Source of the DNA: an uncultured virus (IMG/VR IMGVR_UViG_3300043107_000144)
Lineage: Duplodnaviria > Heunggongvirae > Uroviricota > Caudoviricetes
DNA length: 25,727 nt
Strand: one strand, 5' to 3'
Virus record (IMG/VR): IMGVR_UViG_3300043107_000144
A program made the translations under genes and the position numbers. The notes beneath the pieces are model-generated. The model was not told the DNA's origin. It worked only from the letters and a program-made list of their open reading frames with translations, and did no database searches. Below are positions 1 through 25,300 of the stretch, in pieces; position 1 is the stretch's first letter, and each line of letters opens with the position of its first letter.

Positions 1-125
1 TAAAGAGTTGGAGTTGGGACACGCAGGAAAAGAAAGCGTTTACCGAGTATCACAATATCAATAAGAACTGGTGCTTTTCCATTCCGAGTGGTTTAACAAC
101 TAAAGTGGTTAAGATATGGGAATGA
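1..125 (+). CDS. Partial hypothetical protein (5' end outside window)
   Basis: Open frame from base 3 (KSWSWDTQEKKAF...VVKIWE) ending at TGA 123-125, overlapping the next ATG (ATGA 122-125). Confidence 0.55.
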   Translation, partial: KSWSWDTQEKKAFTEYHNINKNWCFSIPSGLTTKVVKIWE

Positions 126-20403: not shown

Positions 20404-21000
20404 TTAGCCGTTGATATGCTGATTCAAGTCGTTCTCAATTCTCTCATAGACCGTTTTCACGTTTGTTCTCTCCCTTGCAGGATTCGGCTTGTCGTAGACT
20501 TCTTTCTCCACCACCTCGCATACCCAGTCAATCCACTCGTCCGATGTGAACTGCGGAAGTTTCCTTCCACGGAAGCGGAAACAGTCGAGCTTGATGTTGC
20601 GGCTCGTGTGAAGGTTAGTGATAAGGTTTCGAATCTTCGCCTGCGTAGCTTCACGGTTGGCGATGTGATTCTCTGTCCTTACACGGGTAATGAATTGAAG
20701 AACCTTCTCCTGCGACAGCTCGAAAAAAGTCTTTGTGATGGTCTGAATCTTTATCTGCGTTTCAGGTCTAAGACCTTCCACAATATCAGACAACATCTCA
20801 TTCTGCGCTTTCGTTTCTTTAAGCAGTTCTGAAACCATTGAGTTATCTCTGTCGATTACTCCCGTGATGGTGGACTTAAACCACTTAAAGCAAGCTACCC
20901 AAAGAAGAGCCGTAAGGATAAGGAAGAATCCTGCACTAATTGCCAAATAGCCATAGTCTGATATGCCCTTGGCGACATCTAATGCCTGACTGACTTCCAT
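20404..21000 (-). CDS. Membrane-anchored protein, holin/antiholin candidate
   Basis: Single N-terminal TM (YLAISAGFFLILTALLWVACF) plus soluble domain, upstream of endolysin. Confidence 0.55.
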   Translation of the reverse strand: MEVSQALDVAKGISDYGYLAISAGFFLILTALLWVACFKWFKSTITGVIDRDNSMVSELLKETKAQNEMLSDIVEGLRPETQIKIQTITKTFFELSQEKVLQFITRVRTENHIANREATQAKIRNLITNLHTSRNIKLDCFRFRGRKLPQFTSDEWIDWVCEVVEKEVYDKPNPARERTNVKTVYERIENDLNQHING

Positions 21001-21419
21001 TACACACCGATTTTAGTCAGTTCTGTCTTTACCCAAGCGATGAACTCGTCATGCTCTGCGACCTCTGCGTCTGTCGCGTCCTCTCTGAACTTGCGTGCCA
21101 TTGAAGCCGTGAAAGAAGCTACCGCCATTGCATCCGAAAGGTGATACGCTGCCATCTCCGCTGCGTTGATAAGACTGTCGCGCGTAGCAGGTTTCTCCGT
21201 GCGGATTGGATAGGCGATGGTCGTTTCAACTTCCTTAAACTCAAAGCTGCCATCCTCTGTCGGTACCTGCTCTTGTCTAACGGACTTCTCATGGGCGATA
21301 AAGTACGTCATGTGAGAGCCTTCGTCAAGAGCGATACACTTACCGTCTTTCCACAAGGTCTTACCCTTGTTGACGTCCTCCTCCTGCGTCGAGGGGACTT
21401 CTGTCTTGTTTACAATCAT
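21000..21419 (-). CDS. Hypothetical protein downstream of RT (tail chaperone or DGR accessory candidate)
   Basis: 139 aa; AGGAGGT upstream; TAATG coupling to next gene. Confidence 0.75.
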   Translation of the reverse strand: MIVNKTEVPSTQEEDVNKGKTLWKDGKCIALDEGSHMTYFIAHEKSVRQEQVPTEDGSFEFKEVETTIAYPIRTEKPATRDSLINAAEMAAYHLSDAMAVASFTASMARKFREDATDAEVAEHDEFIAWVKTELTKIGV

Positions 21420-21461: not shown

Positions 21462-22763
21462 TTACAAAAATTCTGTAAGTTTTGTACTATCTTTGAAAAT
21501 ATATCCGCTGTGTGATACGATTGTAACATCTTCCAAGGGTAGGATTTGTTCTTTCGGGTAGGATTGTTCGCATTCGTGAAGGAATGCTGCAAGGGAGGAG
21601 TATGAGCCGTGGAACTCGCGTGCTATGTTTATTCCGTCCTGCGGAATACCTATCAGACATTTGAGCCAGTTGGGATTGTTGCTGCTGTCGTATTTTATTT
21701 CGTAATCGTGAATAAAGAAGGTAACTCCATTATCGGCAAGTTCCTTGACGGATATTTGCTGTGCGTCAAGTTTTCTCTCTATCTTTATAGTATTAGTTAG
21801 CTCGCGAAGCTTCATTTTCTTTTCAATGGTTAAAAGCAGGGAGTAACAGTCGGCTTCCTTTAGCAGTCCGAAGTAGCTGCTGTAATTTCTATCGTTTGAC
21901 TTCTTCGCACTGCGGATGGTTGAAAGCCTTACCTTTGTTGTTCCCTTGTTATGGTGATTAATGTGGTTACTTCTTCTTACGATATATCCGCATATATCTA
22001 CGGGCATATCAATAGGTTGAAGGATTATCTCGCTTCTCTTTGCCCTTATCCTAAGTTCGTACCACCAATGGAACATGATTCGCCACTTGACTTTATTTGC
22101 CTGCTCCTTGTCTTTTAGGAAACAGATAACATTGTCAGCATAGCGAACCATCATGCACTCGGACTTTATCTTCTTGTCAAAGTCAAGTAATATAACATGG
22201 TGGATGACAGGTGAGAGCGGTGTACCTACGGGGAAGATTGAGCCAACAAAGGAAAGTGAAACGATGAAGTCATTTTCTTCTCCGTAGAAACCGAGCTTTT
22301 TCAGCTGCTTCCTGACTACGCTTTCCCTGATATGCTCATAGCATTTGCGCATATCAATACAGAGAACGTATTTCAAGTCCCTGCGGTCATATACTGCGTG
22401 CTTTACGCGCTTTAATACGGAGTTGTTTCTTTTCCCGGCTGTGATACCTCTTCCTTTAAGACAGTTCAGTCCTACGTGGACTTCCCTTCTTTTGTAGGCA
22501 GGCATGATTAAGGAAATTGCTACATATTGAAGGACAAGTGTATAAAAAGAAGGTTGAAATGTTGTGCGGTGCTTACCGTTTTTGTTCGTTACTTCTCCCC
22601 TTTTGTAGCTTATTTTCTCTAAGTATGCCTTTGTTTTTATATCCTCAAAGATGTTCCTTGCATACTCTTTATCTCTTAAAGCCAAGAGGACATCGAATCG
22701 GCTTTTCCTGCCTTTCGATGCCTTCTTGATAGCTTTTTCGATGAGTTGTATGTTAACTTCCAT
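21462..22763 (-). CDS. DGR reverse transcriptase with C-terminal extension
   Basis: KASKGRK, KNGKHR, LCIDMRKCY, FPVGTPLSP, VRYADN, DICGY, SYFGLL; adjacent to TR. ATG 22763 preferred over TTG 22790. Confidence 0.92.
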   Translation of the reverse strand: MEVNIQLIEKAIKKASKGRKSRFDVLLALRDKEYARNIFEDIKTKAYLEKISYKRGEVTNKNGKHRTTFQPSFYTLVLQYVAISLIMPAYKRREVHVGLNCLKGRGITAGKRNNSVLKRVKHAVYDRRDLKYVLCIDMRKCYEHIRESVVRKQLKKLGFYGEENDFIVSLSFVGSIFPVGTPLSPVIHHVILLDFDKKIKSECMMVRYADNVICFLKDKEQANKVKWRIMFHWWYELRIRAKRSEIILQPIDMPVDICGYIVRRSNHINHHNKGTTKVRLSTIRSAKKSNDRNYSSYFGLLKEADCYSLLLTIEKKMKLRELTNTIKIERKLDAQQISVKELADNGVTFFIHDYEIKYDSSNNPNWLKCLIGIPQDGINIAREFHGSYSSLAAFLHECEQSYPKEQILPLEDVTIVSHSGYIFKDSTKLTEFL

Positions 22764-22768
22764 GAGAA

Positions 22769-22900
22769 TCAAGTTCTGAGCGTTTCGCAAGAGTTACTTG
22801 CACACCCACTCTGAATTTAGGTGCTTGTCTTATATTTTACGTCTTTCGCGTAAGTCCTTCATCTTTCCTGCTTTGAGGTAGCTTTAAACGCTCAAAACTT
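22769..22900 (-). ncRNA. Structured spacer of DGR RNA closed by a 15-bp fold-back stem
   Basis: 22886-22900 and 22771-22785 are inverted repeats (14/15; the mismatch is a U-G pair in the minus RNA); inner hairpins GCAAG/CTTGC and TTACG/CGTAA. Confidence 0.65.
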
Positions 22901-23005
22901 TAGCAAACCCTCCATTATTGACGTTCGTATTAGAAGCTCCATTATTGCAATTCGCACTACGACGAGCGCAATTAGTGTCATTCGCATTACCGCCAAAACG
23001 CAAAG
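22892..23005 (-). repeat. DGR template repeat (TR)
   Basis: 114-bp gapless match to 23215-23328; 10 AAY codons; 13 of 15 mismatches are at TR adenines. Confidence 0.95.
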
Positions 23006-23153
23006 AGGCTTTGATAAAGAACTCTTATCGCAGCTGTACTCCACCGATTCGGAGGTTGCATCCCAATGTGCAACTTGTCGGTTTTGAACAGCGTTTGCAA
23101 AGATAGTATAAATTTTCAACTCTCCAAACTTTTTTCCCGAGAATTAAAAGGCG

Positions 23154-23189
23154 GGGCGATTGCATCGCCCTTTATTGCGCTTGCAGCGC
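23154..23189 (-). promoter_or_regulatory. Tandem hairpins downstream of VR (target-recognition candidates)
   Basis: Minus strand GCGCT-GCA-AGCGC (23189-23177) and GGGCGAT-GCA-ATCGCCC (23170-23154). Confidence 0.7.
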
Positions 23190-23203
23190 TGCTGCGCCTA
23201 ACG

Positions 23204-25300
23204 CTAAAGCTCTATCAGAACTTGAGCAAACCCTCCATAAGAGACGTACGTATTAGAAGCTCCAACATCGCCAGTCGCACTACGACGAGCGCAATAAGTG
23301 TCACGCGCACTACCGCCAAAACGCAAAGCAACTCTGATAGCATTAGAGGTGGTAGCACCATACCATTCGTAATAGTCGAGCGTATAACCGTAGAAACACA
23401 TACCCGTACTTACAGAACCGCCTGACAGCTTCTTCCAAGGCGAGAAAGCATACCTTTTAGCTGCCCAGTTATATGACTGCGTAACACTGTCACCCAAGTA
23501 GATATAGCTGTCTTCAAGTGAGAACTTCTCTGTCGTGGTGATAGTCGTTTCGCGTCCCCACTTCGTTTGGTCGGGTTGAACATACATTTTCAGCGGTGTT
23601 CCCGTAAGTCCAGTACCGCTCTTCGTCTTTCGCGCGATAACCTCCGCGCCACCACCTGTATACTTCCAAATATCTCCCGAATGTGAACAGCCATCCAGTA
23701 CGCCAAGGCGAAGAATCATCTCCACGTCAAAGGTAGTTGCCGTACCCGAAGCGTTGTTTGCTGAAATCTGTCCCGTCATCTTCTTGTAAAGGCGCATATT
23801 CAGTCCTCCGCCCTTAGCCGAAGAGATGGACTTCCACCAATATGTATTACCGTAGCACTCAAACTCTGTTCCTTCCGCTACTCCCGTTTCCACTGCGTAA
23901 GAGCTGACAATGATAGCTTCGTTTACTCTTTCCTTCGGAGCATATTGGTTAGCTAAGTTGGACGCATTACCACACGACGTTGTTCCCGTATATTTGATAC
24001 CCGACGGGTCTGTCCCCCATCCTGCATAAACCCAAGTAGAGGAAGATGTTTCCTTGTATCTCATACCACCGTTTGCTTTCCATGTATCTTCACTAGAGCA
24101 GGCGTCATTGGCGGAGATACCCGAAGAGAAGGTATTCGCATCATGGATATAGTTTGTACCATAAACAGCTTCATGCACTCCGTTAAATGCGTCATACCAA
24201 AAGAAACCGCCCTCGGCAAAAGGAACGGAAGCGGTTGTGTCGGAGTTGTTGGCTCTAGACCAGTTCATCAGGTTAACTTGCTGACAGTCGTTTGTTCTCG
24301 GATAGAAACCGTTGTTATAGAACCACTGACAGCAAGAACCAATACCCACTTTTCCAATAGAGTTAGCATCGCCAATCTTATAGTCGAAGAAGAAACTGCG
24401 CGTCTTGCCGTTTATTGTGCCCACTCCCGAAGGAGAGAAAGCGGTCGTTTCAACCTTCCACGGAGTAAGGTCGATACCGTCCCAATCCGTTCCCGAAAGA
24501 AAGGCACCCTTCCAACGCTTTCCTGACTTTCCGATTGCGTCGCCAAGGTAATAAAAAGGCTTTACGTTGGCTACCATGATAGAGTAGTCCGTGCTTGTCG
24601 TTTCCCAAGGGCGCAGGATTCTGACCTCTGCTCCCGAAGCATTGTAGAGCTTCTGACTTACACCATACTCTGTGTAGAAGGATTCCGCGTCAAACTCCCC
24701 TGCGTCGCAGTATTTGTTGCTTGCCGAAGCGTCAAGATAAAGAGCGACGTCACACTCGGCACGCTGTTCTTCCGTAATACCAACCGCAGGAGCAAACGTA
24801 CCGTCCTTATATCTTAATGCGTTGTTCTGCGTGAGGACTTTCGGCTTGTTTCTTTCCCCTGCCGTATTGTCCGTGTGGTCTATCAGTACGGGGTAGAACA
24901 AGTCCTGAATCTCTGTCACGTCGCCATGCGTTTCACTCGCTGTTGCCGATAGGTTATCATCTACCCATCCTGCTACGTAATACCGCGGTTGCAGAGAGCT
25001 TAGCTCATCGAGTTTGGTAATCTCGCTCTGCAGGCTGTCGATGGTTGTCTGTACGCTTGCTGCTACCTTGTTTGCATTATCCGCGGCTGTGTTTGCTGCC
25101 GTTGCTGCCGCCGTTGCTTTCGAGCCATCCACCATTATCTTCCAATAAGACGTGTTGGTTACGGCATTTCCCTTGTTGTTATCCACGACTGATACATAGG
25201 AGGAATTACCGCTATATACCACATCGTTTCTTTCGTAACTTGTAGTAGAGGAGTAGTCACCCTTGAAGACTACCCCTACCTTACCTAAATCTGTTGCCAT
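23204..25300 (-). CDS. DGR target: tail fibre/receptor-binding protein with probable C-terminal CLec-like fold
   Basis: 698 aa; N-terminal KGDYSSTTSYERNDVV...YW module, Ala-rich coil, C-terminal VR. Confidence 0.85.
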   Translation of the reverse strand: MATDLGKVGVVFKGDYSSTTSYERNDVVYSGNSSYVSVVDNNKGNAVTNTSYWKIMVDGSKATAAATAANTAADNANKVAASVQTTIDSLQSEITKLDELSSLQPRYYVAGWVDDNLSATASETHGDVTEIQDLFYPVLIDHTDNTAGERNKPKVLTQNNALRYKDGTFAPAVGITEEQRAECDVALYLDASASNKYCDAGEFDAESFYTEYGVSQKLYNASGAEVRILRPWETTSTDYSIMVANVKPFYYLGDAIGKSGKRWKGAFLSGTDWDGIDLTPWKVETTAFSPSGVGTINGKTRSFFFDYKIGDANSIGKVGIGSCCQWFYNNGFYPRTNDCQQVNLMNWSRANNSDTTASVPFAEGGFFWYDAFNGVHEAVYGTNYIHDANTFSSGISANDACSSEDTWKANGGMRYKETSSSTWVYAGWGTDPSGIKYTGTTSCGNASNLANQYAPKERVNEAIIVSSYAVETGVAEGTEFECYGNTYWWKSISSAKGGGLNMRLYKKMTGQISANNASGTATTFDVEMILRLGVLDGCSHSGDIWKYTGGGAEVIARKTKSGTGLTGTPLKMYVQPDQTKWGRETTITTTEKFSLEDSYIYLGDSVTQSYNWAAKRYAFSPWKKLSGGSVSTGMCFYGYTLDYYEWYGATTSNAIRVALRFGGSARDTYCARRSATGDVGASNTYVSYGGFAQVLIEL
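23215..23328 (-). repeat. DGR variable repeat (VR)
   Basis: Encodes LRFGGSARDTYCARRSATGDVGASNTYVSYGGFAQVL versus TR LRFGGNANDTNCARRSANCNNGASNTNVNNGGFAKVL. Confidence 0.95.

Follow-up and report, generated by a model that had tools for sequence, protein, structure and literature searches.

The spacer RNA of a diversity-generating retroelement (DGR), found in a 25,727-nucleotide stretch of DNA from an uncultured virus of the Caudoviricetes (IMG/VR record IMGVR_UViG_3300043107_000144; this whole stretch is 'the window' below), holds a short segment that is complementary both to the 3′ end of the template repeat (TR) with its flank and to the 3′ end of the variable repeat (VR), and across related elements this segment follows the VR end at positions where VR and TR differ. 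The element is a phage DGR, its carrier is a Bacteroidales-type phage, and its features lie on the minus strand throughout, in the order target gene with VR, TR, spacer (Sp) and reverse transcriptase (RT) gene (Table 1). We think it probable that the segment, at 22785–22769, is the primer strand of the DGR RNA and then a guide complementary to IMH (for initiation of mutagenic homing) at the VR end, probably in two steps. In kind, such a segment is already known: a first interpretation made from the window alone (the original prediction) had proposed a cis primer for cDNA synthesis that then switches to IMH, and this amounts to a rediscovery, because the priming mechanism and the targeting proposal are already published for the BPP-1 DGR. 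What the gut-phage family offers is a natural set of co-variation data for the BPP-1 proposal, with 25 VR-end strings and a spacer of its own matching each.

The fold-back segment in the window

The pairings described in the original prediction were all borne out. The 15-bp fold-back of 22785–22771 onto 22900–22886 is returned by the repeat finder (inverted repeat I1) as 93% complementary with arms 100 nt apart, its single U-G pair is U22895-G22776, and the hairpins said to lie within the 100-nt loop are three in number (Table 1). The stretch 22779–22769 is complementary to the VR end, 23225–23215, at 11 of 11 positions (inverted repeat I4), and this 11-mer spans both TR/VR differences because VR has C at 23218 and 23224, where TR has T22895 and A22901, respectively; the first of these is a position of non-adenine type at which IMH differs from its TR counterpart, IMH*. 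At the IMH positions the segment thus matches VR at 11/11 and TR at 9/11 (one a G-U). The claimed distance of 5 nt from the segment end to the RT ATG, occupied by 22768–22764, likewise agrees with the sequence.

In a local fold of 154 nt, the fold-back helix has pair probabilities of 0.86–0.999, and barring the segment from pairing costs 11 kcal/mol (from −39.9 to −28.9). It could be argued that these are chance inverted repeats in AT-rich non-coding DNA, as the matches extend over no more than 11 and 15 nt and a wider stretch of 291 nt is, as a whole, not unusually stable relative to its shuffles (z −0.66). However, among 5000 mononucleotide shuffles of the spacer, only 2 could form 15 bp, G-U pairs included, with the TR end window and only 3 matched the VR end window by an exact complement of 11 nt, and chance is refuted by the conserved position of the match on the junction in 42 of 47 relatives' variants (see below), so that we give it almost no credence.

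The segment follows the VR end across relatives

Homologues of the RT with E ≤ 1e-10 numbered 203, the best at 56% identity, and a profile made from 26 RT homologues led to 80 viral-contig loci (of 199 confirmed) and 31 loci in Bacteroidales-type genome assemblies. A script recognized the order VR-TR-spacer-RT with adenine-biased TR/VR mismatches in 97 of 113 sequences, a set that includes the window and two copies of the same viral contig. From these 97 sequences we obtained 73 non-redundant spacers and 47 VR-junction strings that differ from one another, and it is the latter (hereafter 'variants') that are counted throughout. For each variant an 18-nt window was set on the VR junction, and the longest stretch of it that the spacer complements exactly was compared with 300 shuffles. 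Co-variation of the long-range helix was judged by scripted string comparison and not by column pairs, because the TR flank and the primer segment are 1–3 columns out of register between rows of the MAFFT alignment used as RNAalifold input (25 stretches from TR end to RT start).

The complementarity is conserved in related DGRs: the longest spacer-VR complement falls on the VR/TR junction in 42/47 variants, is at least 7 nt long in 30 and at least 8 nt long in 23, and beats its shuffles (p ≤ 0.05) in 25. Positions at which TR and VR differ lie under the complement in most variants (at least one in 41/47, at least two in 34/47, 94 in all). When identical windows are compared, the spacer complements VR over a longer stretch than TR in 33 variants, over a shorter one in 3 and over an equal one in 11, with mean lengths of 7.2 nt for VR and 5.7 nt for TR. 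In 40/47 a spacer is a better match to the VR junction of its own variant than, on average, to those of the others. The matched strings are lineage-specific, with 25 distinct strings among the variants and each spacer fitting its own VR, which is the co-variation that the original prediction would lead one to expect. For example, the VR of the window reads ..GTTCTGA and that of locus L003 ..GTTTTGA, and each is complemented by its own spacer while the TRs differ from both; further co-varying cores are CCAAGCTT, CAAGTGCTT, CAAGTATTG, TCAGGTTT, GCTCAGGCT and CAGTGTCG.

These comparisons bear directly on a simpler explanation, namely that the segment is a partner of the TR end at the RNA level only, either as a template:primer duplex or as a scaffold that closes the spacer domain for the RT. 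The match to VR would then be a by-product, with TR having drifted (to IMH*) and the spacer having kept the older sequence. The 15-bp TR:spacer helix of the window, with its high pair probability, is what this explanation would predict; the 3′ half of the segment complement follows the TR-only flank, contributing to 146 TR-like positions across the family; and the BPP-1 TR:Sp duplex, as described in the parts of the published work available to us, tolerates G-U pairs and mismatches and needs only 4 bp, those next to the priming site. We nevertheless consider it rather unlikely, as the spacer tracks a lineage-varying VR end through 25 strings, 26 of the 42 junction matches extend 1–5 nt beyond the end of TR/VR identity, the 33 variants in which VR has the longer complement stand against 3 in which TR does, and continued co-variation with VR is not predicted by passive retention of an ancestral sequence.

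At the 5′-most discriminating position, TR has A and VR has C in 23 variants, and TR has G and VR has C in 4; as a change of G to C is impossible by adenine mutagenesis and VR always has C, this is a fixed difference of the IMH/IMH* type, and it is with this VR C that the conserved spacer G pairs. One may ask whether the complementarity is a product of homing, the primer RNA at the cDNA 5′ end being copied into the target, at integration or in second-strand synthesis, and rewriting the VR end each time so that it matches the spacer. A VR base specified by the spacer would account for the C opposite the spacer G in these 27 variants irrespective of whether TR has A or G, and spacer and VR match exactly as far as a sharp crossover. 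On the other hand, the matched VR stretch is coding (frame ...GCT CAA GTT CTG ATA...) and conserved as protein, so that selection on the protein, with the spacer following, is equally possible, and the printed BPP-1 model, in the part of it available to us, assumes that the RNA primer is removed by RNase H. We regard copying of the primer into VR as unlikely.

Pairing of the segment with the TR end

The segment is also related to TR, as the TR:segment duplex is better than shuffles in 28/47 variants. In the reverse complement of the segment the 5′ half is VR-like (IMH) and the 3′ half resembles the TR flank (TGAGC.., or GGGC.. in other lineages). Among the 37 variants with positions of both kinds, 13 show a strict VR-then-TR order, where 2.5 would be expected by chance; the order is 'mixed' in 24, in many of them by eye owing to one stray VR-like position at the 3′ end. 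Beyond the variants with both labels, nine are VR-like only and one is TR-like only. Judging from these sequences, the segment can use the shared core in two ways, together with the TR flank for pairing with TR RNA, and together with VR-specific bases for pairing with the VR end.

Proximity to the RT start raises another explanation, in which the segment chiefly controls RT expression, its pairing with the TR end or in a local hairpin occluding the region before the start codon; the original prediction had also allowed for gating of RT translation. The segment ends 5 nt before the ATG in the window and lies no more than 25 nt from it in 32/47 variants, and in several relatives GCTCAA of the segment can, by eye, pair with TTGAG(C) just before the ATG. 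In other lineages, however, the segment is 36–102 nt from the start, and control of RT expression leaves its following of the VR end unexplained; as the chief role of the segment it seems to us very unlikely. The analysis, which included no test aimed at it, gave no evidence of translational gating.

Independently of that question, several local pairings are apparent by inspection. GCTCAA of the segment could pair with TTGAG(C) or TTGGG in the last ~25 nt before the RT ATG, with ACTTGA in the loop (loci L018, L021, L023, L057, L066, L091 and others), and the TR flank TGAGC is also complementary to GCTCA of the TR/VR end. Alternative pairings, possibly a switch, may therefore exist, and of the local pairing the window itself allows only a 4-bp version (AGAA/UUCU).

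Comparison with BPP-1

In BPP-1, cis-priming from the spacer has been shown both in vitro and in vivo, and cryo-EM has revealed the TR:Sp duplex (Handa 2018; Handa 2023/24; Naorem 2017). According to the parts of these papers available to us, Sp 47–56 pairs with TR 117–129, cDNA is primed from Sp A56 with TR G117 as the first template base, a G immediately 3′ of the nucleotide that primes (Sp G57) is required, and the primer pairs more with IMH than with IMH*, which was proposed to direct integration (Naorem 2017). We find in the BPP-1 GenBank record that the complement of Sp 48–56 equals VR 118–126 at 9/9 positions, and that at the five IMH/IMH* differences the Sp complement agrees with VR at 3 and with TR at 0. 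In both systems, then, a spacer segment 3′ of TR folds back on the TR 3′ end, this segment favours the VR end over the TR end (9/9 in BPP-1, 11/11 here), and a G follows the paired stretch (Sp G57 there, G22770 here). G22770, part of a CUUG motif, is kept in nearly all variants, but its pairing with the VR C explains this equally well, whereas Sp G57 is not complementary to VR.

Other differences concern the extent of pairing and the proteins involved. The duplex here has 15 bp, half of it in the TR-only flank, while that of BPP-1 has 7 canonical pairs inside TR; the RT here is about 100 aa longer than bRT; and priming is proven in BPP-1, whereas here we infer it. Avd is present in BPP-1-type DGRs, though not in all DGRs, and the conservation survey of Handa 2023/24, so far as its available text goes, deals, in DGRs that carry Avd, with the cPRT stop and the Avd-binding stem-loop.

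A model for priming and target choice

In the mechanism that we favour, the segment would fold back, within a TR-spacer transcript, over ~100 nt of structured spacer onto the TR end and its flank, which would place the 3′ end of the segment (around U22771 to A22769) beside TR A22901/U22902. The RT would then start cDNA on TR in cis, like Sp A56 in BPP-1, and the segment RNA would remain linked to the adenine-mutagenised cDNA, at the 5′ end of the latter. Since the segment exactly complements the VR end (IMH), RNA and cDNA together would form one continuous antisense strand able to anneal to the VR sense strand and mismatched against TR, and this annealing would set the 3′ boundary of homing and direct homing to VR. 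Two DNA hairpins with GCA loops 3′ of VR (see below) would probably help to open the target.

The original prediction is thus partly supported. Its cis primer is in keeping with the pairing of the TR end (the 28/47 duplexes that beat shuffles) and with the BPP-1 analogy, while the priming nucleotide and the covalent RNA-cDNA link would follow from that analogy. Its switch to IMH agrees with a spacer that follows VR at TR/VR differences here and in BPP-1, while pairing with the target DNA and its effect on integration are read from complementarity and stay conditional. More tentatively, and though we think it less likely than not, we raise the reading that pairing between cDNA-linked primer RNA and VR, not protein recognition, chooses the homing target and direction even in an Avd-less lineage distant from BPP-1. 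Were this so, the purine that TR consistently carries in place of C, facing the invariant spacer G, would serve as a built-in means of fixing the register of priming, and would also keep TR from being overwritten.

Several observations within the family weigh against the two-step model, and others outside it do likewise. Because the 47 variants share kinship, the counts made on them and the sign test overstate independence, and the counts of junction position, TR duplexes and covered differences rest on an anchor picked by its VR match. In the window the segment forms 15 bp with TR and 11 nt with VR, so that the extent of pairing alone cannot explain why VR is the target. When discriminating positions are counted symmetrically, 144 are VR-like and 146 TR-like, and the segment is therefore a chimera, not simply VR-like. 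An unrestricted RNAduplex search of the TR end against the whole spacer beats shuffles in only 6/47 variants, and it often picks other partners, e.g. GCAGA after hairpin 1; this, set beside the 28/47 significant TR duplexes, places the 15-bp helix of the window at the strong end of the family. Four RNA-library contigs are collinear with the region, with no RNA-cDNA joint among them.

The layout of the spacer is also unlike that of BPP-1. Here three hairpins and an invariant AGAC come first and the primer segment, 3′ of all spacer hairpins and 5 nt before the ATG, abuts the RT start; in BPP-1 the segment, at Sp 47–56 of 144 nt, is near the 5′ third with most structure 3′ of it, and the BPP-1 order of Avd-binding stem-loop, primer, cPRT stop, thumb ring and RT-binding stem-loop is not seen here. 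Neither Pfam nor PHROG searches gave any Avd hit among the ORFs (open reading frames) of the window, and PF05635 (Avd) occurs in 0/5 phage records of relatives, of which 3 are 90% complete or more, so that the ribonucleoprotein context would be unlike that of BPP-1; an Avd encoded outside the window would have escaped the search of its ORFs. Lastly, a test of 15 named phage DGRs located a TR/VR pair in 15/15. Fourteen of them have TR directly upstream of RT, and only two of these 14 gave a significant complement to the IMH/junction, namely BPP-1 (9 nt, p 0.013) and, with 10 nt, Versailles (p 0.003); those of ACA2, hankyphage, Arawn and fEV-1 (6–7 nt at the junction) are not significant.

The case of Bacteroides phage Versailles is nonetheless one in which the pattern recurs in a different RT lineage, with a 10-nt complement that spans the junction and is VR-like at 3/3 discriminating positions. 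An 8-nt match in phiWae15 was discounted because it overlies mutagenised positions. From these sequences, a VR-favouring rule is not shown to be universal among DGRs.

How mutagenised DGR cDNA integrates at VR was still called unknown in 2026 (PMC12875486, in its available text). Targeting by primer-IMH pairing is not new, as it has been proposed in print for BPP-1 (Naorem 2017), and this proposal of 2017 is the only one on targeting that our literature search found; the same search, with supplements outside its scope, found no paper that tests primer-IMH complementarity across DGRs. If the pairing rule held here, it would be general and not a peculiarity of BPP-1, because this system has no Avd that we could find and a different spacer layout. 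It would also supply a rule for retargeting such DGRs, namely to make the spacer segment match the new target end.

Other related systems

Retrons offer a further parallel. Their msr-msd RNA primes itself from the 2′-OH of an internal G after an inverted repeat has folded back, and the RNA stays linked to the cDNA (mentioned in PMC8867640). The likeness is that an RT template RNA would prime its own cDNA in cis after long-range pairing; in retrons, however, the cDNA is not homed, a VR/IMH partner is absent, and the RT belongs to another clade.

The only record in the phage collection with a related RT, in a protein search, is crAssE-Sib (OR575929; 41.7% full-length identity), and a DNA search of that collection with the TR/VR region gave zero matches. 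crAssE-Sib is an epsilon crAss-like phage in which target/VR is followed by TR with IMH* and then by RT (PMC11054128), which is the same cassette order as here, and in the available text of that paper Avd has 0 mentions. IMH and IMH* are annotated there, while a spacer primer segment is not described in that text.

DNA hairpins that follow VR

Two hairpins with GCA triloops lie just 3′ of VR in the window (Table 1), and similar structures are widespread among relatives: at least one follows VR in 44/47 variants and at least two in 38/47, most often at about +22..28 and +40..45 from the VR junction, while none follows TR in the 47 variants and control windows average 0.005 per 90 nt. The GCA triloop is invariant and closed by T:A or C:G, whereas the perfect stems, of 4–8 bp, have lineage-specific sequences. 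GNA triloops form very stable mini-hairpins in DNA. The second hairpin of the window, which is followed by a T run, probably also serves as the terminator of the target gene, whose stop codon lies 11 nt beyond the VR end.

This arrangement resembles the IMH and hairpin/cruciform elements described by Guo 2011 (PMC3240598), in that fixed VR/TR end differences of non-adenine type occur here too and that inverted repeats lie just 3′ of VR and are absent after TR. According to the available part of that paper, its hairpins have 7–10 bp GC-rich stems and 4-nt loops, whereas here there are usually two hairpins, with the invariant GCA triloop and stems of 4–8 bp.

The DGR locus and its spacer

The coordinates of the locus are collected in Table 1. 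TR and VR are 85% identical, with 14 of the 19 mismatches at TR adenines, and 198 nt of non-coding DNA separate VR from TR. Residues 4–89 of the target gene product match the PHROGs families phrog_20680 and phrog_5073 (tail fiber), and a Pfam search of the window ORFs found no family for it. Elsewhere in the window there are, by PHROGs, genes for primase/helicase, RecT, resolvase and endolysin.

Table 1. Features of the DGR and its surroundings, in positions of the window
Feature	Position	Strand	Source
Target gene, 698 aa, tail-fibre-like N-terminus, VR at 3′ end	23204..25300	-	ORF list; PHROGs
Variable repeat (VR)	23215..23339	-	repeat finder, family D1
VR 3′ end (IMH-like), exact complement of spacer 22779-22769	23215..23225	-	inverted repeat I4
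First GCA-triloop hairpin 3′ of VR, 5-bp stem	23177..23189	-	hairpin scan and sequence
Second GCA-triloop hairpin, 7-bp stem, then T run	23154..23170	-	hairpin scan and sequence
Template repeat (TR)	22892..23016	-	repeat finder, family D1
Template strand of fold-back duplex: last 9 nt of TR and 6 nt of TR-specific flank	22886..22900	-	inverted repeat I1
Spacer (Sp) from TR to RT start, 128 nt	22764..22891	-	sequence
Sp hairpin 1	22837..22853	-	local fold; RNAalifold
AGAC, invariant (columns A82-C85), in conserved single-stranded Sp stretch	22827..22830	-	alignment A2
Sp hairpin 2	22802..22824	-	local fold
Sp hairpin 3 (GCAAG/CUUGC)	22787..22801	-	local fold; CTTGC motif conserved in alignment A2
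Candidate primer / anti-IMH segment, 17 nt	22769..22785	-	inverted repeats I1 and I4; family analysis
RT, DGR reverse transcriptase, 433 aa, ATG 22763-22761	21462..22763	-	Pfam RVT_1, E 9.2e-11; phrog_1423
139-aa ORF directly after RT gene	21000..21419	-	tblastn: same place in 64/113 sequences

Within the spacer, hairpin 1 is conserved in the family, being the only structure that RNAalifold recovered, with 5 pairs each of which shows changes on both sides in some sequences. The place of hairpin 2 in alignment A2 is held, by eye, by stems of varied sequence, and in the segment itself CTC at 22780–22778 is invariant in that alignment. An inverted repeat spanning codons 12–27 of the RT gene (22683–22728; 15 nt, 87% complementary, 16-nt loop by the repeat finder) could perhaps function in the RNA as an element that lies 3′ of the primer segment. 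Rfam gave zero matches at E up to 1 in 22500–23400, and a scan for sigma-70 promoters and terminators gave no useful result.

RNA-library contigs and the TR transcript

Six sequencing runs with small shares were considered, and the four RNA-library runs among those compared were examined as assembled contigs. The RNA-library contigs (151–251 nt) cover only 22765–23080, that is TR, the spacer and ~60 nt upstream, and as they show neither ends nor strand, this cover is only a weak hint of abundant TR-spacer RNA, and the lack of cover over the VR and RT parts carries no weight. Three of the contigs begin at 23054–23080, in minus-strand orientation, and a little upstream of this the minus-strand sequence 23105–23098 resembles what we take to be a Bacteroidetes-type −7 promoter box, a possible promoter of TR RNA; here there is a weak hint that the TR RNA has a promoter of its own, placed between the VR terminator and TR. 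A hairpin of 9 pairs, at 23053–23076, lies 37–60 nt upstream of TR in the presumed leader of the TR RNA.

One of the contigs, that of run X6 (22830–23080), looks like an adenine-mutagenised TR. It keeps both TR-specific flanks and has 19 differences, 17 of them T>N on the plus strand. Among the runs compared, 13 of the T>N changes, at TR adenines 22916–22988, are unique to X6, a 14th (22938) is shared with X2 and X4, and of those in the spacer 22885 is unique to X6 while 22835 and 22846 are shared with X1 and X2; the evidence is one contig with a depth of 2.2. Self-homing into TR and VR-to-TR gene conversion are both possible causes. If pairing does choose the homing target, X6 would represent an escape that arose naturally, with TR itself as the site struck, and the 15-bp pairing between spacer and TR would make such escape more likely in this phage.

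The ORF that follows the RT gene

The 139-aa ORF directly downstream of the RT gene is fused into longer forms (197–288 aa) in some relatives, and several DGR lineages are without it. It belongs to no Pfam or PHROG family, and its AlphaFold model (pLDDT 94.6), predicted to consist of beta strands and three helices, gave no PDB match with E ≤ 0.001 in a fold search; by the tests run, and as modelled, it is not Avd-like. It may be an accessory gene of the DGR, or simply a syntenic phage gene.

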